Below, in pieces: positions 3,300-61,923 of a stretch of 64,000 nucleotides of DNA; position 1 is the stretch's first letter; each line of letters starts with the position of its first letter. Position numbers and translations under genes: made by a program. Below the pieces are notes generated by a model. The model was not told the origin of the DNA. It saw nothing but the letters and a program-made list of their open reading frames with translations, and made no database searches. Origin of the DNA: Podarcis bocagei (lineage: Eukaryota); assembly GCA_964188305.1 (NCBI GenBank), contig OZ076888.1; one strand, given 5' to 3'.

Positions 3300-3602
<303 letters not shown>

Positions 3603-10478: not shown

Positions 10479-13341
10479 CTAAAAAGTAATAAAAAAAATT
10501 AGTTAGGCTCATTCCCATGGGAAACATCTGTCAAAACATCTGAATTTTTATGTGTTAATGATGTCTAATGTGTTTTAGCTTCACTGAAGTCAACATATCT
10601 AGTTGCTGCTCCTGCAAACAAATCAGTTTATCACAATACTGTACTTTCACCAATTTAAAGGCATTTGCATGACATAGGATGCCTTGAGGATCTGCTTACT
10701 GCCCAGCAAAGTGCCATGTAGTAAATTTAGCAGAAATATTAATGTAATTGCCAGAAAGAAGAGATACCAGATTACTCAAGATCACCTTGACATATTTTTA
10801 AACAGCTTTTTAATTAGATTTTACATCAGTGTGCATTTGCTCAAGGGGTGGATTTGGTTCACAGCAGGGTTTCCTGACAAGTAATGACACACACTAGTGA
10901 TTTCTGTGAATGGGTACACCCAAGTTTTGAATGGTTCATAAATGTCATTTGCACCCTTTAGGTAACGGAACAGCTTCCTCATAGTTCACTTATTGATTCA
11001 ATGTATCTTAAAAAGCATGTTAGTCTAGCTTTGCTACCCTGCTATATTAAAACAAGCTTATAAGAAATCCCAATTAAACTATGCTTAAAATATTATCCAC
11101 TTTGGGTAGACTTTGTCGACTTTGCAATAGCACATAAGAGGATCTGAACCTTCTATGGGCAGTTTACAACTAAATCAGCCAAAGCTGTTTAATCACCTTT
11201 AAAATAATCTGGCAACGGGAACATAAAATACAATTATTTGAAAACTATTAGCATAATCCTTTAATTTGTTAAAAGCCCAGGCAGATATCCAAGCCTATGC
11301 ATAGCAGGGTAACTCTTCTAATTATATAGTTCTTTCTGCACTTTTTTGGTTTCATCTTCTTTTTTTCAGACTCTTTAAAAACAGCTGAAGCATGTTTCAC
11401 TGCTCCCTCAATGAAAACAAAGCAGAGAGGGGCTGGCTGGTTAATTTGTAGTTTAGCACATGTGTATTCATTACACAAAGGGTGAGTTAAACATGAGGAC
11501 CACCACGAAAAGCTGGCAGTCTGGTGTCAAGTTCACTGTGTGCTTCCATAACACAGGGCTGCCACTGGAGGGAACACCTCCCACAAATGACAGATGGAAA
11601 GCTTATTCCCCATATTACCAACGTTCTGGACAATTTGAACTTCCTTAACAAACTTCCATTTCCTTCCATTTTTCAACTGCCTCTTTATCTCTAAATTTAC
11701 TTTTTGCAGGAGCCCCTTAAAACTCTCGGCAGCATTCTTCTTCTTGCTACGCCTTAGAACAACATCTGACTCATAGCATAAAACTATTTTCTTTTGCTGA
11801 TGACTCATATAAGAATTGCTTCATTCACAAGTGAGCATTAGTGTTTTCTCTCATAGCAAGTGCATCTGGGATTACAATCCCACAACCACAGGACCCAGTC
11901 CATAAACCTGCTATATCACACAACAGTGTGGAGTGTTGTGCTTGGCACACCTAGAGTGCAGGGCATGAACAGGGACAAGATACTGCATGACTCAACTGGT
12001 CTGGAAGCAGCTGTGGCTCCACAGGCAGGTTGGCACCCAACACTTTGGTTGGGAGCTGTTGCACCTACAACAGAATCAATGGGTGCTGCAGAGCAGCTTG
12101 GCCATTTCTAGCTTGTCAAGATTCAGGTGTCTGTGCTGAATTGGGAAAGGACTGTGATTTTACAGCAGGAAACATCTGAGGATCACCATCAGAATGTTTT
12201 ATAGAAAGTCACCTAGATTGTCTTACAGCTAAGATGTCACTCATGCTTTTGGGAAAGGGAAATTACTCTTCTTGAATATACAATGAACAACTCTGCCAAC
12301 TCCTACTTATTGCAAGCTTTTGAACCCCACAAAACACTTTCATGCATGCCTATCTATGCCCTTTTGAAAGCAGAAGTTCATACAAGACTACAGAACTAAG
12401 CTTTTTCACTTTAAATGCACGTGAGGCATGCCACACTGTTGCTTCAAAAAGTTAGGCAATACTTGAACTGAAAATGAACTGGGTTTACAATTCAATTTGA
12501 CTAACCTTGAAACACCAAGTCTCAAACTAATTCCTAGGGCAACACATTGCATGAAACAATTACTGAGCTAGAGATTTTCAACTGACACTTAAAACCTGCA
12601 GGTTTGCAGAGAATTATTAACTAAGTTACCCCAATACTTATGTTTTGCCTGTTTTTAGGCATCCGATGCCCAGAACTAACATGCAAACATTCCCAGGGAC
12701 AAAAAATCTCTTAGAAGTAGTGCCTTGAATCACAAGATAAAAGAGGAAAACAAAAACTGTAGAGGGACACTGGTCTACTGTCCTGAATACTAAAAAGTTT
12801 GCTACAGTAGAATTTAATCACAGCAACATGCTTGTGGGCCAACAAAGACTTTAAATCTTAACACTTCTCATTGCTTTCTACTTTGTGTTTATTAGAATCT
12901 TTATCATTTTGCCACTTAACTTGCAAACAAAGTATAAATTGAATGTAACAGGCCGAATGAAGAAGCTGCTCCAGAAACTTGTTTCCATAGCCACCTTGAA
13001 CAAGCAAAATGCTAACTCACAGCAATCTAGCCAAAGGAGCTGTGGAATTATTCAAAAGCTTTCTCATGCATGAATAATTAAGAACTCTCAAAGGCCAGCC
13101 TGTTGTATCCTGAAAAAGAAACACTTTTCCTGTTGTGGTATAAATTATGACAGGGAATTCAAACTGCTTTACCAGGAGGCATACTTCTGTATTCTCGTGC
13201 CCTGTTATTCAGAGATGAGCAAGTGTTAAATGGAAAGAGGCAAAACAAAGCCAGCCTTGCAGGACGTATAACCACCACAATTATTTTTCTTTTAAGAGAC
13301 TAAGGTCCACCTCCAGTTATACTACAATGAATAAAAATATA

Positions 13342-13566
13342 CAGTGATACCTCTAGTTATGAACTTAATTTATTCCGGAGGTCCATTCTTAACCTGAAAC
13401 TGTTCTTAACTAGAGGTGTGCTTTCGCTAATGGGGCCTCTTGCTGCCACTGCGCCGCTGGCACACGATTTTCGTTCTCATTCTGGGGCAAAGTTCCCAAC
13501 TCGAGGTAACTCTTCCAGGTTAGCAGAGTTTATAACATGAAGCATTTATAACTCGGGGTACCACTG
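13342..13566. mobile_element. TA-flanked Tc1/mariner-pogo MITE, family A (inverted relative to the other copies)
   Basis: CAGTGATACCTC...GGGGTACCACTG; TA TSD; interior shared with 38510, 40813 and 60531. Confidence 0.85.
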
Positions 13567-14605
13567 TATAGACAGCTTTAGAGTGAATTTGACCACTGGC
13601 CAGTACTACTCCAACTTGCGGCAGCTGGACAAAATCTCAGGAATAGGCCTTCCCCATCACTACAATGATTTCGTCCCAATAATCAAGATTCCCTGTGTGA
13701 CCCCCAGCTACTATTGTCTGACTGGTTCCAGTTGGTGGTTGCAGGTATGAGTAGCTCAGAGGCCTGAATCTCATTTTATGAATAGGCCTGAACAGCAATA
13801 TTCAAGAGGCTCCCTAACACACAGAACTAGTATACAACAGAACAGGATTTAACCCAGCCTTTTCTTAGCATGATTTTTCCTTGGTTTGTACATTACCGAA
13901 GAGGTAGACAACTGGGTGCCCTTCAGATGTTAGGCTCAGAACTCCCATTAGTCACACTAGCATGGGACATAATTTCACCAGAGATTATGAGTGTTATAGT
14001 TCAACAACATCTGGAAGGCACTGCATTAGAGTAACATTAGGTATACGACTCTATAATGCAAGAATTAAGATTGGGGGAACAGGTTCTACTACCATATGTA
14101 CAAGTTCCTGGGGGCTGCAACGGGCCTTAGCTTCTCATGTGTACATGCAATAGAAAAACTCAAGTATGGATGTATATTATGGGAACATTATGGTTCATAG
14201 AATGTAGCCACACTAACTTCATCAATGTGTGAAGCTACCCAAATTTTTTAAACACCACCAATTTAGAATGAAACAACAGCCCAAAGATGTACTGAAACAG
14301 AGGCAATTACAATTGTTTTACTCTGCAATATATAAAAGCATCAAGCAACTGCTATAACAGCTTTTACTAGTTTTGTACATTCAAAACTAACGCCAAAATT
14401 CTATCAGGAATAAGACTCAAGTAGCAATACAAATGACTGTGGTGCCGGCTTGTTAAAAAGTGATACAAGCCTTCTGCATTGTATTGCACATGCGAAATAC
14501 CACAAATCTGTTAGTCATAGTGCTTAAGATTATAGAAATGGTAAATGTTGCACAATTGGCAAAATGGGTTGACTAATTCTACCTAAATTAAAGCGTGTGC
14601 CTTCA

Positions 14606-19075: not shown

Positions 19076-19383
19076 TCAAAGGCTAAGAATTAAGTGCCAT
19101 TTGCACAAGAAGCATTGCAAAAGAATCACTGTGAAAAAGTCCCACACAAGCAATTTTTCAGTTCTCTGGAGTCAGACAAAAAACATCCCAAATTTGTATG
19201 CAGCAAAGGTATCCAAGAACTAAAATACTGCGTACTTTGGGTCTATGGACCACAATAAAGCTGTGTGTGTATTCAAGGACTAAAACTGAATACCCTTCCT
19301 TGATTAGTAGCAATTAATAAATATGCCAAGAAGCTTACTGACACAATCTGTCCTGAAGGTTTGTGCTAGAATGCATACCCACT

Positions 19384-20167
19384 TGTCAGGGGTTCAGAGA
19401 CAGAGGCACAGGTGAGGGAGGAGACGGAGAGCGACGAGGAAGAATCCCAGGACAGTGAGGAAGAGGATGACAATGACTTGAGATCTTCCATGAGTCTCTC
19501 AAGTGAATCGGAGGATTCTCAGGAGGGGGCGCCCCTAGTCAGGACAAGGGGGGTCACAGGGGGGACCTGCCAGGAGCAGGGAAGCAGCAGGGAAACCCCG
19601 AGCGGGAGTGGGAGATCGGGGCCGGCTTCCCAGCAGGAACGAAGGGAAGAGAGGGGGGTTCCCAGTGTGACACACGGAGCGGAGCAGGAAAGAGACAGGG
19701 GAAGGAGATCTGGGGAGAACGTCCTGGCGGAAGAGGCGGAGAGTAGTACAGGGAGTAGTGTAAGTGTCAAAAGGAAGGTCAGGGGTAGCGAGCGCGCGCC
19801 AAGTTCAAATGTGGAGGCGCGCGGAAATGGAGAAAGCCCGGAGGAGGAGCCCAGCCCCAAAGCACGAAGGAGGGGGGAACAGGCATCTCAGGAATCCGCT
19901 TCAGGAGAGAGCAGGAGGGAAGGAACCCAGGGGGGCAGAAAGACCCTGCGGAAAAGGAAAGACAGGAAGAGGTGGTCTAGCACAAGCCTCTTAAGTTGGT
20001 GCAGGGGCGGGACCGATTCAGAGGGGACTTCAAATGTCTAACGTTAGAGACTCGGGGCTGCGCGCCTCGGTTGTGGAATCAATAATGAACTGCAATAAAC
20101 ATCCTTGTATATAAGAAGAGCTTGGCGTTGGTCTTTTGTGAGCTGAGACCTGAGGCAGCCACTGACA
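19384..20167 (+). mobile_element. Solo LTR (784 bp) with an internal open reading frame
   Basis: TGTCAG...CTGACA termini; perfect 5-bp TSD CCACT (19379-83 and 20168-72); AATAAA at 20094; frame open 19385-20041. Confidence 0.88.
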
Positions 20168-22372
20168 CCACTCTAAGGAAGTTTTTAATGTTTGACTGTT
20201 TTTAGTATTTTGCTAGATGCTGCCCAGAAGGGCTGAGCAACCCAGTCAGATGGGCAGCAAGTAAGCAACAAAATTATTATTATTGGTTAACACCCCTGCA
20301 ATTCTGACACTGTTTTGCAGTGTTAGAGGCAAAGAACTGGTATACTCCAATTCTAGCTTTTATGCACTGGAGCAAAATGCTGTCTTCACATTTGGTTGTT
20401 AGTGTGTGGTTTGAAAATTACTACCATATGCAGGAAGCTGTTGCTCAAGAGGATAGTTTTGCTTGCTTGGAATACCTGAAGCCACAATATGAATAATTTC
20501 TACTTTAAAGAAAAAGAATTCTCCCCCTTCATTTTGATATTACAGTGACTTAATAAAATCTAAAATGTAAACAAAATTTATTATCCTTTGCCTTTTGTGA
20601 AAGGGGCTGGGCAATGACCTATGAATTACTTCCTCTTGATATACACTTGCTTACAAAGAAAGGACAGCTAAATGAGGTTTCAATTCTGTACAAAAGTGGC
20701 TTCTAGAAACTCCATTTGTATTTAAGAAACACAAAATCAGCTCAAATGATTCCTCTTTCAATTCTGCATCTAGAAAGTAAACTAATTGTTTAACTATAAT
20801 ACATGAAAAATTAGTGTTAAGACAGGACATGCTGCCTTTTTCAAGGAACTACTTGAACCATAAGTTGTGATGTTGTTGCCATTAAGAAAATATAAGTGCA
20901 GGACCATTGAGAGTTGAGACAGTACAATGAAACAAGAGCCATCCACACTGTTCTGCGTAGCTGCTGCATTCTGAATATGGGTATTCCCTTGACAACTCTG
21001 GTATCATTTGCTGGAGCAGAAATGTTTCAGTTTACATTCGCCTTCATTTCTGAAGCCAAGCTAGTAACTGCATATGGAGGAAAGAGATGAACCACTTTTT
21101 AATGGTAACATGCCTGGAATGTACAAGGGCATACAGTATTGCAGTGTTTGTTCTAGCTAGAGTCAACATTTCATCATTCCAGTCTTTCGGAAGCACATTA
21201 ATCGGAGGCATGCCTGCTGTCTGCTAGCACACTTAGGGTTGCCCAATCCCCTGAGCAAGGCAGCAAGTTCAGTAACTGTCACGACAAGTTCGTTCCAGCA
21301 GTTAGAAATTTACCACGTTGGATCCACAAGGCAGCTTTTTTTTTTTTAAGTGAGATACTGTACTGCTTTGTACTGAAAATGCCACCAATACCATTAGAAA
21401 GCATAAGCAGCAATTCAATACTTGAGAACCCAAACTACACTGTATATGCACTAGAATCACTCAATACCTGGGCACTCTAGATAAGGATATACATATTAAT
21501 TTGAGCATAGTGATAAAGTTTCAGCCTTAGTTTTCAGTCAACTTATTCTTTCCAGTTTGACTGGAACCAAAGACTAGGACCCAAAGAACTATGAGAGTAG
21601 TATGTGAGCTCAAAACACAGTGTTCCAAGAGGTAGAGCATTCATCCCCCACCCCCACATAAAAATCTTTTATGCTTTTCTAAACCTGCTGAACTAGTGCA
21701 AGCCCCTTGCATATGTAGCTCTCCTGAATCACAACTAAAGGCTGGAATATTTCCAGCTGCTTGGTGCTAGCATCAGATGTAAGTATACTTATATGAACTA
21801 TCTCATTTATTTTAAATGACAACCTTAATAAATGAAGGAGTTTGAGGCAAAATCCATTCAGCTTTGGACCATCTGCAATTAGGTGCACTACAGAATACAG
21901 AACACAACTAATCTTCAATAGAGTAAGACTGTATGTAATGTCTGTCTGGCAGCTACTTTTATTACACCCTACTATGGAACTGGAGCTAATTCAGCAATAG
22001 TAGGTTACAGATGTAATGATGAAGGTAAAGACCATTTTTAGCAAATGTAGTCATATTCCCAAGTCAGTGGAGTGGTGAAGTTGACTAGTCCAGAGTGCAA
22101 GCAGCTTCTGTGCAGTCAATTCCATCTCGTAAGTAAAACGAATAAAATATTATTGAATATGATGCAGCTGCAGTCCATATAGCAAAAAGGGAAATTGACA
22201 ATAATACATTAATGAAATGGTGGGATGCAGGAGTTACGTAGCCACATATATTTTAATGTTTAAAGTGCTGTAGATGTATAAATATCAGCAAGTATAGACT
22301 GTACTTAAAAGGGCCTAAAAAACTGCTTCAGGTATTCTGTGCAAGGAAGCTAGTTGCTCATGACTGCAATAC

Positions 22373-22745: not shown

Positions 22746-24902
22746 TCATCACTGATCCATTCAACTCAGCTACTGAATAAGATTCTGGAGCAAACCACCA
22801 CCCCCATAGATTGTAGTGGTACCAACTGCTAGAAGCTTTCTATGGCTTTTCCCAACTCCCATTTGAAATACTACAGAAAACAGCACACTAGTTTGGACAA
22901 GAGACCATGATGGGTCACAAAGAACATGTGCTCCAATGAGCAGCTTAGCTCTGCAATCAGATATCAAAATATCTGCAAAATTATCACCTGTAAGTCAAGC
23001 TGGGACTAGGGGAGACAGTGGTTCAAATAACCTCTCAGTCAAATCACTGGTGAAGGTATCTTTGCTCCCGATCAGCAAAGAAGGGAAATAACTATATTGT
23101 GTGCATTTGGCAATGCATCTAAGTTTATCAACATGACATGTAATTTTAAACAGCCCAATCTGTTGCATCAGCATACCAAAAAGGTTAAAATGTTGTATCT
23201 TGGCATTATCTGTTTGACGGAACACCAGAAGACTAAAAAGAAATAAACTAAATGGCAGGAGGATCTTGTTACTGATAGCTCACTGATACTTTGTTTTTAA
23301 TCAAGTAAGCTATGAAAACTACCCACTGTTTTATGAAGCTAAACAAAGAGCTCCATTGGAAAAGTGCTGAAGGGCAGGGGCAAGGCCCCTACATGGAAGT
23401 TACACAGCAAAGTTAACATTTCTTATTTGGTTGTGCACAATACTGTTATAACTCCTAAAACTCAAAGGCGAGGAGACAAGATGCTTTTCTGTAAAAGACT
23501 TAAATGACTCATAGCTATGCAAAATACTTTCCACTTGAACCAGCAAAGAATCTTACTTGTTTAGGGATTTTCCTTCCCTGGCACACCCAAAAATGCAAGC
23601 TAACTTAGAAAGACATTGTGATTTATTAACAACTGATTCACCTCCTTTGCAATGGAACAGTAGTGAAAGTTACTCTGGAATCATCAGCAAACTTGAGAGC
23701 AATCCTGTAACTTCTGCTTATGAAAGGAAGAATAAACTATAGAGTTTTAAAATACGTATTTCACATATTTTCCCCCTCTGGCTGTCTCCATATCAACACA
23801 CACAAACTAGGTTAGCACACTTGAGTGATCTGGATTTAATGCTATTTAGACATTACTAGATATATACACGTTAGGTATTTTTTAATAATAAAATCTTAAA
23901 TGAAAGGAAAAGTGAAGATGGTTGTGTTGACAATAAGAACCTTATTAGTATGAACAAAGGACAAAACAAGTTGGCCAATTTGTTTCTGCCTGTGGGATTT
24001 CCATAGGCATCTGGTTAGTGAGAACTAGATGTTGGACTAGTTGGGCTTTCAACCTGATCCAGCAGGGCCCTTCTGTTTATGTTTATGACATGAGCAAATG
24101 AAGTTGCCACCATACAAAGTCAGACTAATGCAGCATCTAGCACAGCACTATCTACTCTTGACTGGCAACACCTCTTCAAGGTCTCAAAGGTAAATCTTTC
24201 TTGAACTTGTTTTTTTTCATACAAAAAGTCCCATGTACTCTATCACTGATTTATGACATGTTCCGTAAGTACTACTACCACTCATAACCATACGAAACTA
24301 ATCCTATGAAGCTAACGAGTGTCAGATCACTATTCCCCATTGCAGCAGCCTCTACACAGCCTTAGGGAAGGGACAGCCAACATCTTATTAGGCAACAGGT
24401 AGGCAAATACCCCACAGCACATAAGGACAAGTCGTGTCATCGATGAATTAAAGAATCACACCGGAGTCTGCCAATCTGAAATTGTCTGTTTCCCTATTAT
24501 ATACATTTTTAAAAAACTGTATAGTACAATCTGAAGAGTACATGACTGCCAACATACACGGGCATCACTTTATTGGGGCCAAACTCAATTTAAGAAGAAG
24601 AAGAAGAATGAGAAGGCAAAAAGTTCAGAATGCTAGGGTCCATACTAGAAATCTATAGGATTTAATTGTTGAGCAGATTCATGGGAGGACAAACTACCTT
24701 TATACCAGTATTTCCAAATTTGTTTTGTTTTATGCACACTATAAAGAATATATGGTTCACTGAGTAAACAAACAGCATTTGAGATTTAAATATCAGCAGT
24801 AATTCAAAAGGTAGCAAGTGATATAAAATTATGTAGTTAGAAACAAGTAACCATAGGTAGTTTAATTTTTATGTTGTGATCCAACAGAGACACTTGCAGT
24901 TA

Positions 24903-25132
24903 CAGTGGTGCCTCGCAAGACGAAATTAATTCGTTCCGCAAGTTTTGCCGTCTAGCGAATTTTTCGTCTTGCGAAGCACGGTTTAAACGGTTTAACAAAG
25001 TCGCAAGACATTTTTGTCTTGCGAAGCAAGCCCATAGGGAAATTCGTCTTGCGAGGCAAATCGCGAACGAAAAAACCTTTCGTCTAGCGAGTTTTTTGTC
25101 TTGTGAGGCATTCGTCTTGCGAGGTACCACTG
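24903..25132. mobile_element. MITE family B (similar TIR; internal CGTCTTGCGA repeats)
   Basis: TA|CAGTGGTGCCTCGCAAGACGAA...TTCGTCTTGCGAGGTACCACTG|TA. Confidence 0.88.
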
Positions 25133-26092
25133 TATTAATCTAGTATTGGTTAAAACTGCTACGACTTTAAATATATTACATACCAATATGCAAGGCTGAC
25201 AGGATTTAAGATCCCCTGTTTGAACAGGATCCGAAGTCAATCATCTACTCTTGCTGACAAAAGAATCAGCACAGATTTGTTCATCACTATAGGATCAAGA
25301 GTTTACTTTCAGGCCCAGAATCTGTTGGTCTAACAAGCTTTTGCTATGAGAAGTACAGACAGAGTCAGAAGTTTGTTGCACATTGCTAACTCCTACTTCC
25401 TGTAGTGGATACATTTAGTTCTCTAGGCAGCTGTCTATATGATTAGCAAGAACAGCTGTAGTTTCCCGTTAAGCACCGCCTCGAAGCACGCAGTCAAACA
25501 GGCAAAGTGAGATCTTGGGAAATTTTTGCATTTCTTTATATAAATGATGACTTTTTATATAAACTATATTATTTGTATTAATGAATTACATTATGTGCCA
25601 TGTGTTACATCAAACAGGATTTCTTTTATTAGTCACTTATATAGAGCATTTGCAATTCCCTTATCCTACAGGTAAGCAGTACCATGCATTAAAAAAAGAA
25701 CCCAGCAGTTTCTATCTGCTTCCCACCACAAGTATAGTAGAGCAGGGTGTGCATATGTGAGAGTTTGGGGGGGGGTAAGAACACCATGTTGCTTCAAACC
25801 ACAAAATCACTAGGTGCATTACTATATCTCAGTATGCCAGCTCTGATATGGCAATGCTATCTACCTTACAGAGTTGTTTAGAATATTAAGATAATGTGTT
25901 AAAGTACTCTGATCACCATAGAAGGTTCTCAAATTGTGGTCTATGAATCATCCGTGTGTGAGCACGATTCTGGTGAATGATGGAAAGGCTGCTTCTGTAC
26001 AACGATTCCCTCCCCCCCCAGATGGGGTTAAGTGCTTTTAGACTAGGGACAAATTTATCCAATAAGCAAACAAGGCACTATAGCCCCTAGAG

Positions 26093-30790: not shown

Positions 30791-31136
30791 TCCCTTCATG
30801 ATGCCAACATGGCAGCCAGGCTAGCCACACATTTGCCTACACAAAATAGTTAGTTGCCATGTATTTTATTCTTTGCATGTGTGAAACTGCCTGGTTGGCA
30901 GAAATTTAGCAGGCGAGCTTTTCACATTTTTGTTCTGTGCAGACTTCACCAGTTAAGAGATTGCTCCCACTTTCACTTTCAGCTCATGATGACTTATGCA
31001 AGTCATTTCTTGGCAGATGCAAAGAAGACACCACGTATTTAGAAAGGGAGAATCTGAGACACAAAAACACACACACACCTCACCATGGGTCAGTCTCTCT
31101 CATCCCAAACTACTTTAAGATACTGTTACAAAGCTA

Positions 31137-31443
31137 CAGTGGTGCCTCGCAAGACGAAAAGAATCCGTTCTGTGATTCTCTTCGTCTAGCGGTTTTTTCA
31201 TCTTGCGAAGCAAGCCCATTGACGGATTAGCGGGTTAGCGCTATTAGCGGCTTATCGGATCAGCTGATAAGCGGCTTAGAAAAAGGGGGGAAGGGAAAAT
31301 AACCCGCAGGAACTTGCAAGACATTTCGTCTTGCGAAGCAAGCCCATAGGAGATTCGTTTTGCGAAACACCTCCAAAACAGAAAACTCTTTTGTCTAGCG
31401 AGTTTTCTGTCTTGCGAGGTATTCGTCTTGCGGGGCACCACTG
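31137..31443. mobile_element. MITE family B
   Basis: Same long TIR and internal repeats as 24903; TA TSD. Confidence 0.88.
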
Positions 31444-32507
31444 TAATAATAAGTGGAATCCCCAATCACATACACCACAGGAAGGTAGGTTACATACAAA
31501 TTCAGTACTATGATACTTCCTGTTAACAACTATACTTTCTAATGGAGTCATCCCAGGTACAATAATTGATTGTGATAAATTAAGTGCTCAGCACGTATGT
31601 GCAAGTGACCTAATCCAAGGAGCTTCATCTTATATGCACGTTTACTCCAAAGCTCTTTTGGGTTACACAGGACTTACTCCTGAGTAAACAGGCACAAAAT
31701 TATAATCTTTTTTTCAGCTGTTGAAACCACAATAGTCATATTAGAAGGGAAAGCTCTCAAGGGGGCAATGACTACATTCCAGCCAACCCACTCAGCAGAC
31801 CTGTTTACTTCAGTAGCAAAGTACATGGTGTACACAAACCCAATGCAAATGGTAACTCCAGACTATATTGGTGGGTAAGATGGTAGGAAGGGATTTACTT
31901 TGCTAAAGTTACTGATGAGGAAAACTCAGCTCTGGGCTACCCCTTTCAGTGGTCCACTGCTGCAGAAAAAAGAGCTAAGAGTCATGTGCCACTTCGAAGA
32001 CTGTGCACTTTCCAAGCTACAATGGATACACAGTTATTTTGGCTGAGACACAGAATACAGCGCTAGTTATCTTGGCTGGGACTATGCTGTTTCCCATTCA
32101 TTGTGACTCAGGGTTCCCCCGTCCCTCTTGTTTTCTTTGGTTTTAATGAACAGGCTTTAAGCTGGCCTTTTTTTCTTTTCTTTTTTCATTGAGGCTCAGG
32201 TAGAGCCATTCAGAGAGGGAGCCGCATCAATCAACTGGGAGGAAGAAAACCAAGCAGCTTGGCGAGGTGGTTTTTATTATTTATACAGCACGCCACCATT
32301 TCTTCCAAGGAGCTCAATGCCGTGTGCACGGCTCCTCTCCTCCCAAAACCCCTGTGAGGTAGGACTCGCTGTAAAAACCGTGTTTATGGATGACAATTTT
32401 ACTCGGCTAGGAGTGATCCCCAAAGAAGCAGCTAAGTTCAAGGCCACCCAGAGAGCTTCGTGGCTCATTCGAACTCTGGTCCCCCAGGCCATATTACAAC
32501 ACACTGC

Positions 32508-32637
32508 TGGCGTTTCTCAAACTTAGGTTCTCGGCTCTGGTCCGACTACAACTCCCATCATCCCTAGAGCTAGCAGGACCGGTGGTCAGGGACGATGGGA
32601 GTTGTAGTCCGACAAGAACCCAAGTTTTGAGAAAACA
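32508..32637. mobile_element. Palindromic hAT MITE related to 59344, next to the GLUD1 exon 1 donor
   Basis: TTTCTCAAACTT...AAGTTTTGAGAAA arms; core CTACAACTCCCAT...GCTAGCAGGAC.GGTGGTCAGGGA shared with 59344. Confidence 0.78.
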
Positions 32638-32697
32638 TTACGCCGCACACGGAAATAAGCGGAGGAGGGGCTGGGTATTCGGGAAGGCGAGGCTCAC

Positions 32698-33145
32698 CTC
32701 CCTTGCAGGGGGTGCGGTGCTGGCTGTGCTGCGCCCGGTAGCCCTCGACCACCTCCCACTCGCCGTTTTCCCGCTTGATGGGGAAGGAGACGCTGAGCAC
32801 GTGGTTGCAGGGCTTGATGATGCGCAGGATGCCGCGGACGCGGTGCCGCTTCTCCTCGGGGCTCTCGCGGGTGCGCAGCCCTTCCACCAGCTTGTCCTCC
32901 ACGATGCCGGCGCCCCGGTCGAAGAAGCCCTCCACCATCTTGAAGAAGTTGGGGTCGTCCTCCGACGCCGACACCGCTTGGCTGTATTGGCGGCGCCCGC
33001 CGTCGTCCCGACTCGTCGTCGTCGCCCTCCTCCTCCCCGGACCGCTCCCCGCCAGCAGGGCAGCCGCGCACGGCTCCGCGCCGGACAGTGCCGGCGAGCC
33101 CGCGGCGCGGACGGGCGCCAGGAGCTCCCCGAGGCAGCGGTACAT
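32698..33145 (-). CDS. GLUD1: Glutamate dehydrogenase 1, coding exon 1 (mitochondrial leader plus mature N-terminus)
   Basis: ATG at 33145; MYRCLGELL...RRQYS...[18 protein letters not shown]...[15 protein letters not shown]; GTGAG donor at 32697; 448 nt, phase 1. Confidence 0.98.
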
Positions 33146-35948: not shown

Positions 35949-38509
35949 TACACACACGTCCCAGAGTTTGAGAAATAATAACTTGGCCATAACCAGAGAA
36001 TTGACCCGTGGAATTTAAATTTAGTTCTCCAAATCTAACTCCATCAGCACTGTACTAGTTTTTCTTACTATATTTATAATAAAGTTCTGTCAATTGGGTA
36101 ATGTGTAAACATTAGACCATTATAAAATACTTTAGCCCTGACTTTTACAGGCCTATATTTTAGCTCATAATATCAATCTCAACATGTTGTACCTGGCAGT
36201 TTGAAACACTGCCCTTGCATTAAACTTGTGTTGCCTATATGATCTGTTGGCCAGCATAAACTGGTTTCATGTACTCTGTACTCCCTTACTGCTTCTTGCT
36301 TGCTATGGCCTTTTACATAAATATTTTTCCTTAAAGTTCTTTATCAGGTGCCTGGGTATTGCAACATCAACTAAGGTTACAGGGCTGGGAATACATGTGA
36401 AGTGGAAAGAACAGTGTGCATTTAAATTAGTTTATGATTGTAGGGAGATTGTTCTAACCAATTTTATGAAAAACAAAACCTTTTTAGCAATGGGAAATAC
36501 TTTTGAGGCTATATGAATAAAAACACGTTGGCTATAGCATCCTTAGACTACTGCCTTGTATTTCAAAAAGTAAGTATAGTTGTCTCTTGGTATGTAGAAA
36601 GAGGAGTGGGATGATGTGTTCAGGGTGATTTAATGGCTGGAGTTTTTATAGTTTATTGTTTGCTGTTCTCCATTTTGTTATGTAGGTTACATTATGTTGA
36701 CAGTTCCCACTGACAAATATTAGGGTGCAGTTCTATGTGTCAGTGACTTATGTGACAAAAGGTACATCTTACTTTCCTTTTATAATCACATTTACATTCC
36801 ACCAATTCATGTAAAATATTCAGGCACTATACAACAATAGAAACACAATGATTTTTTTTTAAAAAAATGCATGAATGGCCATATTTTTGTGCAGTGCATA
36901 ATAATCCCCTTTGAAATAATGTTACTTGCTATAGGTTGATGCAAACCATAATATGGCCAAGCCAGTTATATAAGCAAGTAGCTGCTTTGCCCTTTTAGTA
37001 TTTGTCTTCAAGAGTGTTTTGGACTGAGTTGTTGGAGTACACACATTTTTCTTTTTGTGTTATGCTAACTGGAGTTTTTGGCATTACAACTTTCTGGTTA
37101 TGTGTTGATTTAAGAGTGTTGCATACATTTTCCAGATGAAAGGGAGCTTCCTATTGCCTGGTTCTGACAAAGTCTTCTCTCACTATGGTTTTATTTCTTG
37201 ACTATATCTTTCTTGACCATTATATATTCTCCACTGTAAGAGCGATTTTCCATAGTTCAGTGGGGAGTTCTTAAAGGCATGTGGATTCTGCAGAGGAAGC
37301 ATCTTCAAATGAAGTCTGTGTTTATGAGAGAAGCCAATTTGACTGAAGAATGAGTAAACCACATCTTCCACCATGAGTCATCTTGCAAATCCCAAGCAAG
37401 AAAAACTTTGTAAAATGTATCTTTTCACCTAAAGGATCACAGGGGGTTTAAAGGCGAGAGCTGCTATAACAACAAAACTGAATAACTAAACTGCTTCTTT
37501 TTCTACCATCTCAACCTGTTGCAGACATAATGGGACATGGTTTGCAAAGGGACATTGCCCCCTGCCCCCCATGGTTTGTTTTAAGCATAGTTTGTGAACC
37601 CACCACAAGCCATGATTAGAAGGGCAATCGTAGTTAACTTTAACTATGTGCTGATATCACTGCAACAGGACTCCCTAGTTCAAGGACACGGTATGCAGGC
37701 AGTCAACAGCCCTCAGATGGCAGCAATCAATGAAAACCAGGGATCTGCTTCTGCTTTTCTTAACACAATCTGCACTGACTAGATTTTGGTTCTGCCCTTT
37801 GGAACATATCTATAAAAATGTAATTGAAGTGTATATTTTTGGAGTGTATGCAGAGTCATTTGGTATCTTCAAGCAAATATTAAAAGGCACTATTACTTGT
37901 GATGCTTGCTGAATTCCAGTTAAAACTACTGACTATTCTCTGCAAAATAAAAATAAAAATGGGAGTTGATAATTTTGGAGCACAATTTACCAGCACAATA
38001 TTGCACTTGATAACTGCAGCTGAGACAGGGCTTTTCTATTAACCAAGATAAAGAAGCAAGTTGTTTACTTGCTTATTGGTACAGCTGGTTGTTGTGTGAG
38101 TAGCTGCTAAGCCCCATAAGCCCCTAGAATTCATTTTCTTTCTGCTGTAATGCTGCCTCTGTAGAAGATCCATCTGCTTAGTTCTCTTATTACTAGGTTT
38201 GCTGATGGTGTGTGGGTTATTTAGTTATTTATATTTTTTATTTACAGTATTTATAGCCCACTCTTAGTTGTATGTTTTCAATCCCACTGTGGGGAACAAA
38301 GTAATAACAATAAATGGTGAAAAACAATATAGAAAAATTACAAAATATTATAAACAGGACCAATAAACAATGCTATCATAAGTTAATCAAGCAAAACTAC
38401 AGCAGCAAAAAGTAGCATTTTAAGTTTAACCAAATATGTATGTAAAAACAAGCAAAACATTTAAACTGATTAAACAACCAACGGTATCAGCAATAGTTCC
38501 CAACCCATA

Positions 38510-38739
38510 CAGTGGTACCTCGGGTTACAGACACTTCAGTTTATAGACGCTTCAGGTTATAGACTCTGCTAACCCAGAAAAAGTACTCAGGTTAAGAACT
38601 TTGCTTCAGGATGAGAACAGAAATCACGCAGCGGCAGTGGGAGGCCCCAATAGCTAAAGTGGTACCTCAGGTTAAGAACAGTTTCAGGTTCAGAACGGAC
38701 CTCCAGAACGAATTAAGTTCTTAACCTGAGGTACCACTG
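38510..38739. mobile_element. MITE family A
   Basis: TA|CAGTGGTACCTC...GAGGTACCACTG|TA. Confidence 0.88.
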
Positions 38740-39441
38740 TATTTTACTCATGGCAACCCACTCTCTTCCTCTTTGTCTCCCATACAACGAGGGCCCCACT
38801 ATGTGCCAACAGATTATCTCTCTGGCTTTTGAGTAACTTAACATATTTCATCCCCAGCTGGTGTTTTGCTCCCCTTCCCAGGCCTGAGGAAACTCACAGG
38901 CCTCCAGGTCAGCAGGGCTGCCAGGTACTGACATGCACATGGTTCCCTCACCCTACACTGAATATTCAATCTGCCTGCCTTAAGTATGCATTTGTCCCAT
39001 CCACCTGCCCACCCAATGAAGAATTTAAAGCGTTATGATAGCTGACTCTTTTAAAAAGTAGTTCTGGTCTTTTACATCTTGGAAAATAACAGTGCTAATT
39101 TTCACAGTTGTGTCATAGATGAGGGGTCACCCAAAGCATGAAATACTTGAATGGTAAAAAATGTCGCTGAGAAGGGCTACATAATATATTCTTTTTTCCT
39201 TAAAGTTAAACAGCTCTAGAAGTCAACATTGCTCTTGCTGATGCCAAATGTCTTACAGATAAGTGGCATTTGAGCTAGAAACAGCCCAAAGTCAGTAGTG
39301 GCAGACTGGTTTCTTTCCTATTTAAAATGAACAATTAGCAGAACTGTTTATATAAACAGAGAACATTTTGTTGAAACTGCTAACATTCACATGCCGATAA
39401 CAAGCAAGTAGATAACCAAGTTCTTTATTTTTTGTTTACAG

Positions 39442-40422: not shown

Positions 40423-40812
40423 TATTTACTTTAAAGTGAGCCATCCTGTTCAATGAAGCTTATTGTCAATTAAAATTGTAGAAAATTAGCTACATATCAA
40501 GCTAACTTTTAAAATATTGTTCAGAACTATTAATGCAGACAATTCCAACTTTATTCCTTGTATTCCATAGATTTGCCTCACATTTAAATGTGAGTGAGTA
40601 CTTTAAGCTACCATTCTAGGGGAAGCTCAATTACATTCTGCATGGATTTTTTCATAAGTAAGTTGTTACTGAAACAAAACACCTGTTCATTTGAAGAAGA
40701 TCTCAGAGGTCAATAGCTAGTGAGACTTTCCACCCACATTTGGAATTCAGCAAAAAGAAAAGCTAAGCAAGTAAATGCAGATTATAGTGTTACAAAATCT
40801 GTCAAGAAAGTA

Positions 40813-41054
40813 CAGTGGTACCTCGGGATACAGATGCTTCAGGTTACAGACGCTTCAGGTTACAGACTCTGCTAACCCAGAAATAGTACCTCAGGTTAAG
40901 AACTTTGCTTCAGGATGAGAACATAAATTGCACGGCGGTGGTGCAGCGGCAGCGGGAGTCCCCATTAGCCAAAGTGGTACCTCAGGTTAAGAACAGTTTC
41001 AGGCTAAGAACGGACCTTCAGAACAAATTAAGTTCTTAACCCGAGATACCACTG
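40813..41054. mobile_element. MITE family A
   Basis: TA|CAGTGGTACCTC...GAGATACCACTG|TA. Confidence 0.88.
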
Positions 41055-42149
41055 TACTTGCCTCAGGGAACATTTAGCCTCATACCGTATTCTTGGGGTC
41101 CACTCTGTTCTCTAGATAGTGGTGTTGGAGCCAGTGTATTTTGCTCTACAAGCAATTTATTTGTATGTAGCTGGCCCCATAAAAAAACTGGTGCCACTAA
41201 GCAGTAAATGCTTCCCAAGGGAGGAGCCTGTGCACATAAGCTTAGCAGTACATACAGATATGGAAGTTTATGTGATGTGTTCACACATGCTGCATAGGAA
41301 ATAAAAAGATGTAACATCTCTTAAAATTTGAAAATAATTTTTTGTTAGAGCAAAATATTTTATGACCCCAAGTACAGCAATCGGCTTGACATTCAAAATG
41401 CTGTAATCCTTATCCATTGTTTGTTCCCAAAACACATCTGGGCACAACTCTGTCCCAAATCTATCTTGAGTAGAAAGCACTTCCATTGCGTAAGTTGACT
41501 ATGCATTACACTTTAACCAAGAGCACTTGACATTGTATAACCGTAAATATTTCTGATTGTACCAAAGATGTCTATTCACATTTTAGATCAAGTGTTCCAC
41601 ATCACTGAATTCTTGGAAATGCAAAACTGTTTCTTCCTGACCAGTTTCCTGTGAGTCACTAATATACCTTTGCAGGAAACTAAAGCAGAAACTGTTGTAA
41701 TAACATATGATTTCAAAGGGGTAATTATAAATTTGGGTTGCGAAGTCTTATTTCAGGCGAGGGGAGTGAGGGACAGGTTATGGTGTGTTTGTGATGCCCA
41801 TGACAGTTTCTCCAGTTTGCAAATGTGCCGATGGGTCCAAAAATGTCAGTGGCTGAAAAGGTTGGTATCCCCTGATCTGAGAACACCTGCAATAATTTTC
41901 AGCCATGAACTGGAATGCCCAAGGTTTTCAATTTCTGCCTTTATATTGGAAAGCCCAGGTTGTCCATATCTTCGCTACTACTTGCAAGGCACCTAATCAC
42001 ACCCATGATTGATGCCCAGGAATAAAAGTGTATATATATGGCATAACTATATGGTGGAAACAGAATTGCAGTTGACCCTTGAAGAGCAGGATTGGATGAC
42101 CTTGTGGTACAAGACAAACATCAATCTATGTTGGCAAATGTGAGGGAGG

Positions 42150-45590: not shown

Positions 45591-47589
45591 TATTTAAACT
45601 CTTGTACTGATATTACTTCTTATATGGCTATTGGTTTTAAATGTTTAAATGGATTGATATTTTTTTTACCTATGTGTACACTGCCCTATGGGAAGAAGGG
45701 CTGGATAAAATTATAACAAAAGTAAGTTAAATGTAATATACCTATGAACAAATGGGGCAAGTGGTCTCAAACCTATGCTCTGTGGGGTTGACCTAAACAA
45801 ATTATTTACTCTTGTCATTCCTCTGTCACTTTTGAACTCTACAACTCAGAGGTAGCAGACTCCATCCTGTTGATAGTAGGCCAGTGCCTAAAGTTTCATC
45901 ATTACTTTTGTCAAACACTGCATGACCTTTAATCTCTACTTTGGCACTGCTGTTTCCAGCAGTATTGCATCTCTCAGAGTTTGTGGTTCATGATGACCTT
46001 GGCTGATCTTTTTCTTTTACCAGACCCATTTAAATCCTACAGATGTTATGAAAACCTTAGCCTTGGATTAGGCAACACTGAACAGTGTTCTCAATTTCTC
46101 CTTTTTTACTTTCTGTCTACTTCATCCCTGCCGTTATATTCTCTTTATAAATTACTTATAAATACTGGGTTATTGTTTCCGCTGGATGTGATCAACCCAC
46201 TGTGCTGTTGAACTTGGAACAGTTGCTCATCCACAAGATCCATGAAGCCACAATAAATACTTTGTTCCTAAAGTACCCATTCCCAGTTGATCCTGCCCAC
46301 TGCATCTCACATTCCTCTTTCACTTTTGGTGTGTCCCTTTGTTCTGATTCTTCCTAAACTGAACTGCTTTGGCTGATTTTTGGCTTTGATCTTGGGTTAT
46401 AAATTGGTATTATTATAATGAGGCTATTATTGGACTGTAATTGAAATCTAATAAAAAAATTATTTCATAAAAAAGGAATCTCAGTTTTAGATTCCACTTG
46501 AAATAAAATACTTGTCCATACTGGGGCAGACAGTAAATAAATAAATATGTTAGGGTATGTTTAATATTGCTCCAGAACTGGATTAATTATAAAATGTCTG
46601 TATATATATATGCCTCATACAGTCATGCTACAATGTAGAGTCTACTCATAGTTTTCTAAGGATTTGGTGACCTCTGATGGGCAACTAAGAATATGGATTA
46701 AATATTTTCTGATAAAATGAGAGGCAAATGTTTCTTATTGTAACCTACTCTGGGTTCCTCTTTAAGAAGGAAAATAGAATATAAATAATTGTTTTATGTG
46801 TTAAGTAATAAATGCTTAAGAATTTTATTGAGCGTTGTGCTTGTTTTTTTTAAATATTTTACAGAAGATCAAAAATCTGGAATACGTATCGGAGATCTTG
46901 GGCTCCTGATTTCAAGTGGAAGCATTCATGATTGTGCATGTTTCGCCATCACTTAAAAAAAATAAAATGCCAGATGTGAGCAGAAGCTGATGTCCAAAGT
47001 GCCAAGTAGCAGTGAACATCCAGATTTGAATAATATGAAAATCATAATATTTCAGCATAGAAACATGACTGAAAAATTTCATTAGTGATGTTGTCATCTT
47101 GTCTTCATGCATTTTAATAAACCTGGATATTTAACTAAAAGTTAACAAACACAGCTAAGTTTTAGAGACAATTGTACTGTATCCCTTAAGAAGTCTGATG
47201 CTGTTGAAGCGTGTTTCCCAGCTTCACTGTGACTCTTCGCTAGGGACCAAAAGTAATAAGGAACATCCCATAAAAGTCACATGGGTAGAAATGGCTGTTG
47301 GACACCATAGTGTTCTGGGCTCTTTAAAACACAAACTACCATTATTAAGTCTTTCAGTTGTATGATACATCTCAGTTTGTAATGTTTTATTAGGGATACT
47401 TAACCAACTTCCAAAATCAGTAGGATGGAATTTTTTATTTGGGTAATGTGTATGAAATATTAATATTGCTAACCTTTAATGAATTGTTTGAAAAATGAAG
47501 AGTGATTATAAGTCACATTTTAAGCACTGTGTGTTAAATGAACTATTATATTAAAATTTTCTTCATAATCAAAAAACTGAAAGAACAGC

Positions 47590-49027
47590 ATGTCTGCAGC
47601 ACCTCAAATTCATATTTTCTTTGGTGCACCTAGCCTCCCAGCCTCATTAAAGACTTCTAAAGAAGAGAGGTTTTCAGCATCTACTGCTGAAAAATGGCAG
47701 AAACTCTACTTTTCATTACCTAAGGACACTTTTAAACTTTGTACTAGAAAATGTATGTTTCTTGAACATGTAGATCATCGGACACCGAATGATACAGAAT
47801 TGACTGCTCAGTCCAAAGATCACTTCCCCCCAGATGGTGGGAAAGAATATGGGCTGACTGATGTTATTTTGACAGACTGTGGAGCTGGTGCTGGAAGAGT
47901 AAAATTACTCAGCAATGAAGCTAAGCACCTTCCATATCAGCAGCTTCTCACAGATATAAAAACAGGTGAACCAAGCAAGCAATCTGAAGATGCTGAAGAA
48001 GGTACCAGTAAGATGCATAACCTTACTATTCCTCCCTTGGCTTCTAGTACCGAAAAGTTTAGCAGAGGTCTGGAGTCTATAGGACAGGATGAGAAACCAT
48101 CAGATGTTCCGTGTGCTCATTACCAGCTCTTGAATCAATACTTGGAGGGATGTTTCCCACAAGTAATGAAACAATCAAAGACTGGAAAACCACTAAATGT
48201 GTGTTCAAATCTTCCAGTTTCAACAGACACTGAATTCCTTAGTATTCTGACTTCAAGCCAAGTTGCTCTGCTTTCAGGAGGGCATGCTGTAGGACAAAAT
48301 GAAACACAAAGCAAATCTACAAAGGCGAGTGGAACAGAATTGGATGGACTTTGTAGGGAAGATGAAGCATCCACAGAACTGCATATTCAGTTAAATGAAA
48401 ATGGTGGTTTGTGTGCAAATATCACTGATACAGATAGCTCTCTTGAACTGTTTGACTTTGATAGTACCGTGAAAAGCAACTCGTATTTGAGAGAAAATAG
48501 CTTTCAAGAAAATGCTGATATGCCTACAGACCATTTGTGTTCATCTGATGATAAACCTAAAAAAGAGGTACATTATATTGAACCATGGAAGAAAGGAATA
48601 TTGTGTTCCCAAGTCAGCCACTCTGCTAAAAGATCTCAAACATCTGAAGATATTTCACCGGCAACTTACATTACACTTGGAGACCAACAGCAATCAAAGA
48701 AAGCCAAATTGATTTGTTCTCCAGTTTGTGCAGTTCCACAAATAGAGCAACTGAGAATTTCAGGGTTTAAGAAAGTTTTGAAACGTCCATCCCTGCTTAA
48801 AGACTGTTTATGCAAAGGTCAGAAGTACACCGTCTTAGTCACAGTTCTACATCCTTGCCATATTAAAGAAATACAAACAAAGCCAGGATCTAAACTGTCC
48901 TCAAGAGTCCCCCTAGCCACAGTCGTAGTTTTTGATCAGTCTGAAGTACAACGAAAGATTGCATTGTGGAGAGCAGCAGCATTTTGGTCACTTACAATGT
49001 TTCCTGGCGATATCGTACTGTTCACAG
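47590..49027 (+). CDS. SHLD2: Shieldin complex subunit 2 (FAM35A), large first coding exon
   Basis: MSAAPQIHIFFGAP N-terminal motif; STDTEFLSILTSSQVA; GILCSQ; start of first OB fold (VTVLHPCHIKEI...LWRAAAFWSLTMFPGDIVLFT); GTGAG donor at 49028. Confidence 0.95.
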
Positions 49028-50049
49028 GTGAGGGTTAAAATGGCGCTTATCAGTTCATTTTTGACATTTTCCATAGGAAGTATTTTAGATAGTGAACTGG
49101 TCGATGGTATATACCTTTCTGCTGAGTCTCGGGTACAATGTTAAGTGTCTCCTGAAACACATTCCATATTGTAAGCACATTTATAAAAAACACACTACAG
49201 CTATAGAGATGTGGTAGAGGAGTTGCTCTCCAGCCCCACCCTACAATTAATGCTTCCTAGCTATTAGGAATATCCAAGAAACCTCTATCAAACAATATCA
49301 TAATGCATAATCTATTTCCCTCCGCTCCCCGCATTTGTTTTTTAATACTGCCTTGATTCAAGGCAGCAACTGAATTGGCGTACTGTTAAATAAGGGATTT
49401 TTCTTTTCTCAACATGCATCTGCTCAGTTTGGATGATCAGAAACGACCTTTGCACTCCTTCCCTCGCATGTGGCATCACTGTCAGTTTGCAGCTTAACAA
49501 TAAGCATGATTTGCTGTTGCACTGGAATTGAAAAGCATTTAGTGTTTGCCCTCCAAGTCAGGGTTTGAAGTGAGTTTCTGATTTTTGTTGGGAGGTCAAG
49601 TGCTGATCAGTGTTTGCTACAATGATGGAGGAGAAAGAAAACAGTTGGTGGCTCAATTCATAAAAACATGGATTGGAGGCTTGGCAAAACTCATATGCTA
49701 TCTCCGAAGACTCAGCTTTGAAAAATCATTCTTTTTCCCCATCAGAACTGTATTTACTGTCGCCCTAACAGAAACTGGCAGTGGTGAAGGGTTCTCCACA
49801 ATGTGTTTTGAAGCCAAAATTTGAATTCAAAGCTGGACTTTTAATATTACCATATCTTTGCCCACTTCAGACAGACTAAATATATAAAAAGTCATGCAAA
49901 GCTTGAACAACTTGGTGGTGGCTTTCAGTTTTCGAACAGGGGCTAGTCCAGTTTGTAGATTTGAAGTGGGATATGTCTGTGTCATCGTTGTCCATCCCCC
50001 CCCCCCGCCCCCTGGTGACTTGGACTGAGGTTTCTTCTCTTCGTTGCAG

Positions 50050-50265: not shown

Positions 50266-50713
50266 TGTCAGATGGCAGTGGTGGTTGCTCGTGAGTAACT
50301 AGGCAGGCCTCAGACCTGTCTTTTACAGGTTTTATTTTAGTACAAACTATTTACAGTGCAGAGCCACAAGTTCATGTCTACCTCAATCGCTAGCAGAATC
50401 CGGGAGTGCTTGTTTCCTGGACCTCCCCCAACATAAAAGTCTCATTACGCCCAGCCATTTCCTTCCTTCTTTGCACTTGAGATTTCTGCGCAGGGTGGGT
50501 GACGGAAGGGGCATGCTTCCTTCCTGGCCGGCTTGGCCAGGAGCGGTACTGAGGCTCCCACCAGCATCCTCTGGTCCTTTCACCTCTTCCCCACTGGAGG
50601 TGGGGCTTTCCTCATCACCGGAAGAGGAACTGCTTCGCAAGATTTTCGGAGGCTCCCTGTAACACAACTGCCCCTCTGTTTCCTACCCCTGTTCTGATGG
50701 CAGTTCCCTGACA
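50266..50713 (-). mobile_element. Solo LTR (448 bp)
   Basis: TGTCAG...CTGACA termini; perfect 5-bp TSD ATATC (50261-65 and 50714-18); minus-strand AATAAA at 50336-50331. Confidence 0.88.
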
Positions 50714-60512: not shown

Positions 60513-60530
60513 GTAATACACTATGAATTG

Positions 60531-60764
60531 CAGTGGTACCTCGTGTTACATATGCTTCACGTTACATGTGCTTCAGATTACAGACTCCGCTAACCCAGAA
60601 ATAGTACCTCGGGTTAAGAACTTTGCTTCAGGATGAGAACAGAAATCGTGCTCCGGCGGCAGCAGGAGGCCCCATTAGCTAAAGTGGTGCTTCAGGTTAA
60701 GAACAGTTTCAGGTTAAGAACGGACCTCCGGAACGAAGCGAGTACTTAACCTGAGGTACCACTG
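60531..60764. mobile_element. MITE family A
   Basis: CAGTGGTACCTC...GAGGTACCACTG|TA; left TSD reads TG. Confidence 0.88.
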
Positions 60765-61923
60765 TATTTGTGTAACTGAATAAAAAAAGCAGACAAAACT
60801 TAGTGGTCAAATGTTTGCGGCTATTCAACTTCTACTTATGTGAAGTGGGAGTTCTCCCTAATGCCAGTCCTTTAAAAAAAATCCTCATTAAACTTAAACT
60901 GGGAGAGGTTTATTCAGGTGTTTCTCCGACAGAGACATATCAACTGTTCTGGGAACTTTTTCCACTCTGGGGGCAGAGGCCTGGTTTGCATGCTCCATTA
61001 AACCATAGTTTGCTGCTCCTGGCTCTGCCATGTGTGGGGGAAAACAAACCAGCCTGGCTTGGTGCAACATGCAAACACAGGTGTCATGGGTAGGTAAGTT
61101 GAGGGTTATGTGGTCTGGGAGGGTAAACTGGGCCAATGGGAATGTTACTCCGTTTTCTAAATATATTGCAGCCTATCTTAGAGCCCTTATCTTGTGCTTT
61201 ATCCCCGTCTCAGGCCTCTTTCCTTTGCTTTTCACAATATCTTGGCAGGCAGATATTGGCTCTAGCATGAGAAAAAATGGTATAAAACAACATTTGCCTT
61301 TTGCCCCTTTGCACCCCTGCTATCTTGTTTTACTTTGGCTTGCTTTTATAACAAAAGCACACAAACCAGCTTTGGCCTTGAGGTGTGGTCACAAATGAGG
61401 AAGGAGTAAAGCACTCACAAGCACCAAACCATAGTCCAAGCAATGGTTTGATGCTATGTGTTAACCAGGCTGTAGATGACTTCGCTAAGTGAATTATTAA
61501 CTACTGTTTTGCATCTTCTGAATGCCATTGAACAGTATATCACCCCTTCTACTTTAGAAAACCACAGGAGAGAGGGGTGGTGCTTCTGTGAGTATTCTGC
61601 AGACATCCACTGCCCCCCCCCTTGTACAGTCATGGGGTTTCCTCAGTATTAACCAAGAATCCAATGTCAGTGACAGGCTTCACTCTTTCTGAACACTTAT
61701 ATTTTTAAATTTTAGATAGTTGTGAATGGATTACCCTGCTTTACTGAAAGTCACAAAATGCTTCATATTGTTCTAAAGGAAAGATTATTGGGGAGCCCTG
61801 TTAGGGCCTATTTTTCCTGTTCTTGTATGAGGAGGCTTTTCCAGGGAGAATAGCTTATCTTGAGTGTAAACTGGAAAGGAGTCGTGTGATAATAATGTTT
61901 GAACCATTCATTGTTTCTTGCAG

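Follow-up and report, generated by a model that had tools for sequence, protein, structure and literature searches.

The window analysed here, a 64,000-nucleotide stretch of the Podarcis bocagei genome (GenBank assembly GCA_964188305.1, contig OZ076888.1), contains a solo LTR that consists mostly of one open reading frame. This raises the question of whether the frame is a gene of its own, a part of a larger protein or an accident of base composition. Protein-coding use of U3 is known from MMTV sag and lentiviral nef, which are separate genes expressed from spliced RNAs in enveloped retroviruses, and the original prediction, made from the sequence of the window alone, was of a comparable accessory protein encoded in the LTR. 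The features of this element and of a second, older LTR in the window are as follows:

19379–19383, no strand: 5′ target-site duplication CCACT, a perfect match to the 3′ copy
19384–20167, plus strand: solo LTR, 784 bp, TGTCAG...CTGACA, from a chromovirus family of recent origin (clade A)
19385–20041, plus strand: frame of 218 codons and TAA (20039–20041), corresponding to the last 218 residues of Pol in full-length copies
19418–19471, plus strand: acidic, Ser-rich block; the net charge across codons 1–30 is −13
19850–19873, plus strand: first basic cluster, PSPKARRR (clades A and C), inside the segment with the lowest dN/dS (0.23)
19949–19999, plus strand: second basic cluster and end motif, common to clade B and protein P0014
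19991–19995, plus strand: TATA-like TTAAG, 29 nt upstream of the presumed transcription start, over the LLSW codons; putative promoter element
20020–20030, plus strand: self-primer, complement of the 10–11-nt primer-binding site that follows the 5′ LTR
20094–20099, plus strand: AATAAA polyadenylation signal, 53 nt past the frame stop
20168–20172, no strand: 3′ target-site duplication CCACT, a perfect match to the 5′ copy
50266–50713, minus strand: older solo LTR (clade B, related to clade A), 448 bp, ATATC duplication, frame in the same register as in the 19384 LTR

The termini and duplication of the first LTR, the opening of its frame at LTR nucleotide 2 (19385), the length of 218 codons and the position of AATAAA were all as originally predicted, and translation reproduced exactly the three peptide blocks that had been described. 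The self-primer would mark the U3/R border and the start of transcription, in which case the frame spans the whole of U3 plus 22 nt of R. The prediction came with the caution that the strand is poor in T and that long frames may therefore arise by chance. This caution was warranted: when the whole LTR was dinucleotide-shuffled 5000 times, 28 of the shuffles reached 218 codons, and shuffling the ORF region as often gave 57. By itself, the length of the frame is only moderately unusual.

The LTR belongs to a large family of recent origin. Its best 40 matches in the genome are 99–100% identical to it, the mean difference among 29 clade A LTRs of equal length is 0.36%, and the first 24 nt of the clade A LTR have 1195 exact genome matches; clade A LTRs are scattered along the contigs listed. 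We studied seven copies with two LTRs, each about 6.54 kb long and carrying only gag and pol. The two genes overlap, with pol in the −1 frame, and inside the overlap lies GGGAAAC, which we take to be a slippery site of the PEG10 type and which is present in 18 of 19 elements across all clades. Pfam analysis of a full-length copy gave the Pol order PR-RT-RH-IN-SH3-chromodomain-tail, with an SH3 domain resembling that of Tf2-1. The clade A chromodomain was weak in Pfam (E 0.026) and matched HP1 by sequence (E 0.003); the HP1 chromodomain fold matched the clade A model with an rmsd of about 1 Å, and the top fold match was Ty3 integrase. No tRNA primer site was present after the 5′ LTR; the 10–11 nt at that position are complementary to LTR nucleotides 637–647. 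The pairs of primer site and LTR segment (9–11 nt) differ among clades A, C, B and F yet remain complementary, and for clade B the primer site was predicted from the LTR and then found (of four matches, two proved to be true elements). The Tf1/sushi group is marked by self-priming (PMC6317226). The element is a self-priming Ty3/Gypsy chromovirus of the Tf1/sushi type, young and abundant. Protein searches also found near-identical proteins in Podarcis muralis.

In five of the seven two-LTR copies, Pol is open for 1519–1520 codons from stop to stop: it crosses the polypurine tract and terminates only at the stop codon in the LTR. In the remaining two, a G run directly before the LTR differs in length by one base. 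Past the chromodomain there are about 145 internal codons and then the 218 LTR codons, giving an acidic-then-basic tail of approximately 360 residues. The LTR frame is thus the end of the integrase-bearing Pol and not a free-standing gene. The expectation that the peptide starts in the internal region was borne out, whereas that of a separate gene like sag or nef was not: the frame is continuous with Pol, downstream of the integrase and chromodomain, in an element that is a chromovirus with gag and pol only rather than a retrovirus. Because reverse transcription copies U3 to both ends, every 5′ and solo LTR carries the frame as a passenger. The solo copy at 19384–20167 has no Pol upstream, and its frame is therefore probably not translated.

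The arrangement is widespread in this genome. A pattern across the junction of polypurine tract and LTR had 4023 genome matches, compared to 1003 for a control pattern. Among the first 30 junction matches listed, 28 were from the lineage, of which 22 were open from the chromodomain to the LTR stop, with 195–209 LTR codons. Clade C subfamilies differ in length in ways that preserve the frame (195, 208 and 209 codons). Clade B Pol enters the LTR for 100–109 codons in the same register as clade A; the 25 distinct clade B junctions include many old ones, and 12 are open as far as the motif and the stop. In clade F, in which Pol is 46% identical, the frame opens at LTR nucleotide 2 and runs for 109–117 codons, with its stop just before a canonical TATA box. 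Altogether, three clades of the genome read 100–218 codons into the 3′ LTR in one register, at Pol identities down to 46%. (Contig C19 holds a large share of the full-length clade B and C copies, many of them near-identical repeats, perhaps because it is a repeat-rich sex chromosome. It also contains, twice and with identical flanks, a clade B two-LTR element deleted from RT to the polypurine tract; L110 and L111, G000:C19.)

Outside this genome, the UniRef entry P0002 (Podarcis muralis, automatically named) has a matching tail with 55% identity, and proteins from Rhineura (an amphisbaenian) and a viper have a similar acidic-then-basic tail, which, judged from the proteins, may also be LTR-encoded. 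In an HMM search, 72 of 146 hits had at least 80 residues after the chromodomain; the strict end motif occurred in two and a looser form in P0014. Most of the 72 are gene-model fusions to unrelated host exons. Snake, lizard and frog models (P0017, P0020, P0047 and others) join pieces of chromovirus integrase to cytochrome P450 or vomeronasal receptor sequences, and such fusions in public models are probably annotation artefacts. The LTR peptide itself had no usable match in Pfam, the ESM Atlas or the PDB, and word-indexed protein searches returned only the Podarcis entries and two distant chromoviruses.

The older LTR at 50266–50713 had been put forward as sharing the register, the layout and a K.K...W...LL.W.R motif with the first. 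The register and the basic/end motif hold, but the family frame of 109 codons is interrupted here by a stop at codon 10, and the first W of the motif occurs in this copy alone: relatives that are in frame read KRLG, with L or V opposite the W of the 19384 element. Its 99 open codons were matched in 480 of 5000 shuffles and are not unusual alone. Of its 30 closest relatives, 16 passed a filter of 100–112 open codons plus the motif. What the two LTRs truly share is a basic cluster followed by a hydrophobic residue, four residues of any kind, two hydrophobics, S or C, and W. Apart from the first W, this basic-x-hydrophobic-W end is kept across clades A/C and B, and so is the acidic/basic, apparently disordered character of the peptide, both as originally envisaged.

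Whether the tail is maintained as protein was assessed from dN/dS between single copies; the A/C set consisted of 35 copies picked for an unbroken frame. In this set dN/dS was 0.09 for the integrase, 0.13 for the chromodomain and 0.38 for the internal part of the tail, and the U3 tail had a value of 0.40 (p = 4e-15), falling to 0.29 over the last 36 codons. When the U3 tail was read in the two shifted frames, dN/dS rose to 1.71 and 1.15. Clade C alone (26 copies) gave 0.44 (p = 5e-10), and without clade A all six 36-codon segments lay at 0.23–0.53. Since protein-guided alignment can lower dN/dS, the test was repeated on alignments made from DNA only. In one such pair, mismatches at the three codon positions numbered 32, 28 and 78 within the frame (78 of 138 at the third position, p = 2e-8) and 6, 12 and 7 after the stop (7 of 25), where there was no third-position excess. 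Three further pairs, which are not independent, repeated the pattern. (At 30% divergence, indels counted between clades A and C in DNA-only alignments cannot be relied on.) The 12 clade B copies had an overall dN/dS of 0.47, which fell to 0.21 within the basic/end motif, and the LTR part of clade F (15 copies) was under weak selection (0.58, p = 0.034). In 16 old solo B LTRs the last 36 codons gave 0.47 and the N-terminal part 1.01; a signal limited to the end would be expected if most of the change came after insertion. The U3-coded tail is under purifying selection. A dN/dS near 0.4 fits a constraint on composition rather than on a fold.

The end motif required separate consideration, since the LLSW codons overlap the TATA-like TTAAG. 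In clade B the motif is written with six sets of codons, most of them without a TATA-like word (a word of the TTAAG type is absent from most clade B copies), and the residues nevertheless stay hydrophobic-hydrophobic-C-W. In clade C, IL, VL and LV are interchanged. Because the residues survive synonymous change, the end motif is maintained at the protein level, including where it also serves as promoter; that it is merely a TATA box is rejected for clade B. The end motif is not universal: the basic motif of clade F is a different one, and its frame ends ahead of the TATA box.

Frequent frame-breaking indels had been named in advance as a sign against a coding function. Shifts are indeed common at the G runs of the junction, but most of them are scattered on the trees, and the subfamily lengths of clade C stay in frame. 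In clade A/C, 9 of 50 distinct junctions were shifted, at different G runs and without grouping on the tree; the idea that shifted copies form a lineage of their own is unsupported in clade A. In clade F, 13 of 38 records were shifted, in a sample that is biased by the query and includes duplicates; the G runs were both longer and shorter, and three shifted copies grouped with a support of 75. In clade B, 16 of 26 records were shifted at the junction. The simplest reading is homopolymer slippage, either in copying or in assembly. The tail may be dispensable in some lineages, such as the three grouped clade F copies.

Structure prediction, from an alignment of six sequences, gave a confident SH3 domain and chromodomain and a tail with pLDDT under 50. 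The aromatic cage of the clade A chromodomain is lost, with R and A opposite the W and Y of HP1 and N at the first site, and the three aromatic cage residues that define group I (methyl-lysine-reading) chromodomains are accordingly absent. Clade B retains only the W, and clade F, which has a strong chromodomain match, retains all three. Tail length runs opposite to the state of the cage, at about 360 residues in clade A, 200 in clade B and 120 in clade F; with only three clades, this inverse relation may serve as a lead. (Clade F, L167–L179, is a young family of chromoviruses in which paired LTRs are identical, the cage is intact and the LTR-coded tail ends in RRSARL.)

Considering all of the above, we think it probable that the LTR frame represents the last 218 residues of a self-priming chromovirus Pol, reached through the polypurine tract and U3, and that this selected, predicted-disordered tail holds signals for nuclear import and chromatin tethering in its basic end motif. 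In the mechanism that we propose, Gag-Pol would be made via −1 frameshifting at the gag/pol overlap, and the integrase would be released with the tail still attached. The acidic stretches could then act as a spacer and the two basic clusters as a nuclear localisation signal; the C-terminal region of Ty1 integrase has a bipartite signal of this kind with a long linker. The end motif might bind a chromatin factor of the host, as the C-terminus of Ty1 integrase and the CR motif of CRM elements suggest; for plant centromeric elements, too, a role in delivering integrase to nucleus or chromatin has been proposed. A more far-reaching version, which we consider unlikely as a whole, is that in squamate chromoviruses the chromodomain is decaying and integration targeting has passed to a new peptide that binds chromatin and is encoded across the LTR promoter, as an independent vertebrate counterpart of the plant CR motif, with clade A/C perhaps also making a spliced, separate form. 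In this version, the spacing of nine residues from Arg to Trp in the end motif would be reminiscent of nucleosome-binding motifs, such as that of CENP-C.

The alternative that survives best is that the tail is selected for another role, such as particle assembly, Gag-Pol solubility or chaperoning of nucleic acids in reverse transcription. As such roles would allow, low-complexity sequence with only moderate constraint makes up most of the tail. However, the constraint is strongest at the basic clusters and the end motif, and the longest tails accompany the most decayed cage, albeit in a comparison of three clades only. We regard another role as clearly less likely than targeting, though a credible contender.

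It is improbable, in our estimate, that the clade A/C tail is additionally made as a separate accessory protein, by way of a spliced RNA or release by the protease. Clades A and C do have a donor-like GTAAGT or GTAAGC just after the 5′ LTR, and in all four A/C copies tested a pyrimidine-rich CAG or TAG at the end of the chromodomain is followed 4 nt downstream by an in-frame ATG. Further in-frame ATGs occur at LTR nucleotide 5 in clade F and, in A/C, within the polypurine tract. However, these candidate splice signals have other reasons to exist, because the donor-like letters are those of the primer-binding site and the acceptor-like letters encode the conserved end of the chromodomain. Clade B lacks the signals, with GCAATC or GCAGTC at the donor position and GTG or GTT in place of ATG. 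Contigs from four runs presumed to be RNA contained no GT..AG joint, which weighs little given their patchy coverage of the element.

Finally, that the frame is open merely through a purine-rich, T-poor U3, with the end motif a by-product of the TATA box or promoter and the tail tolerated junk on Pol, agrees with the roughly 1 in 100 shuffles that attain 218 codons, the overlap of LLSW with TTAAG 29 nt before the presumed start and the frequent junction frameshifts, but is very improbable and largely refuted by the selection and motif tests: substitutions are three-base periodic within the frame and not past its stop, dN/dS is 0.40–0.47 in frame and above 1 when shifted, the motif outlives synonymous changes that remove the TATA-like word, and the length variants of the C subfamilies preserve the frame.

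We return to the reading of the frame as a targeting tail of Pol and compare it with known elements. The Tf1/sushi chromoviruses (Sushi-ichi and Amn of the V-clade, and fungal Tf1) share the PR-RT-RH-IN order, the SH3 domain and chromodomain, the self-primer and the 5-bp duplication (PMC6317226). In contrast to that group, the present elements have an acidic-then-basic tail of 115–360 residues after the chromodomain, which fills U3. In fish chromovirus proteins from the same HMM search, no more than a few tens of residues follow the chromodomain. The fish-type proteins P0022, P0037 and P0045 have a basic PRGRGRP stretch directly after the chromodomain and end soon afterwards, a different layout of a basic signal. 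In plants, ORFs of the centromeric CRM group A and of beet Bingo1–4 and 7 continue into the 3′ LTR, which in CRM elements encodes the CR motif (PMC3059260, PMC3605345). The likeness to CRM group A, a polyprotein that runs into the 3′ LTR, is one of layout. CRM elements use a tRNA-Met primer and have their chromodomain replaced, whereas the elements described here have a self-primer and keep a degenerate chromodomain ahead of the polypurine tract. In Ty1 integrase, the C-terminal half is disordered and its end segment tethers the protein to Pol III (PMC10050235). This resemblance, of a disordered integrase C-terminus with a short end segment, is likewise one of layout, and Ty1 is a copia element whose integrase is internal to Pol, with its coding sequence outside the LTR.

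Plant elements already offer examples of Pol running on into the 3′ LTR; the vertebrate case appears to be new. A literature search returned no report of such an extension in vertebrates or of selection in U3, and the accessible parts of PMC3601003 and PMC5053271 held nothing bearing on vertebrate Pol extension. The 2001 description of vertebrate Tf1/sushi elements, or Repbase and Dfam entries, may already mention the extension. U3 is usually seen as a fast-changing regulatory region; here, in young LTR families that are among the most abundant of a lizard genome, nearly all of it codes for protein and is subject to purifying selection. The annotation and dating of such LTRs need to change accordingly, and many solo LTRs with long open frames are explained. 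The short conserved motif at the integrase end also provides a handle on nuclear entry and site choice after loss of the chromodomain cage.

Within the window, host exons of the glutamate dehydrogenase family and of the SHLD2 OB1 domain lie head to head, at 3300–3602 and 32570–33142 on the minus strand and 47581–49035 on the plus strand. The solo LTR at 19384–20167 is antisense between glutamate dehydrogenase exons; both LTRs are antisense to the surrounding gene and, judging from the exons, would be intronic. The window also contains short elements with TACAGTGG ends at 13332–13569, 24898–25139, 31132–31450, 38505–38753, 40808–41068 and 60526–60778, presumably miniature transposons of the Tc1/mariner type.
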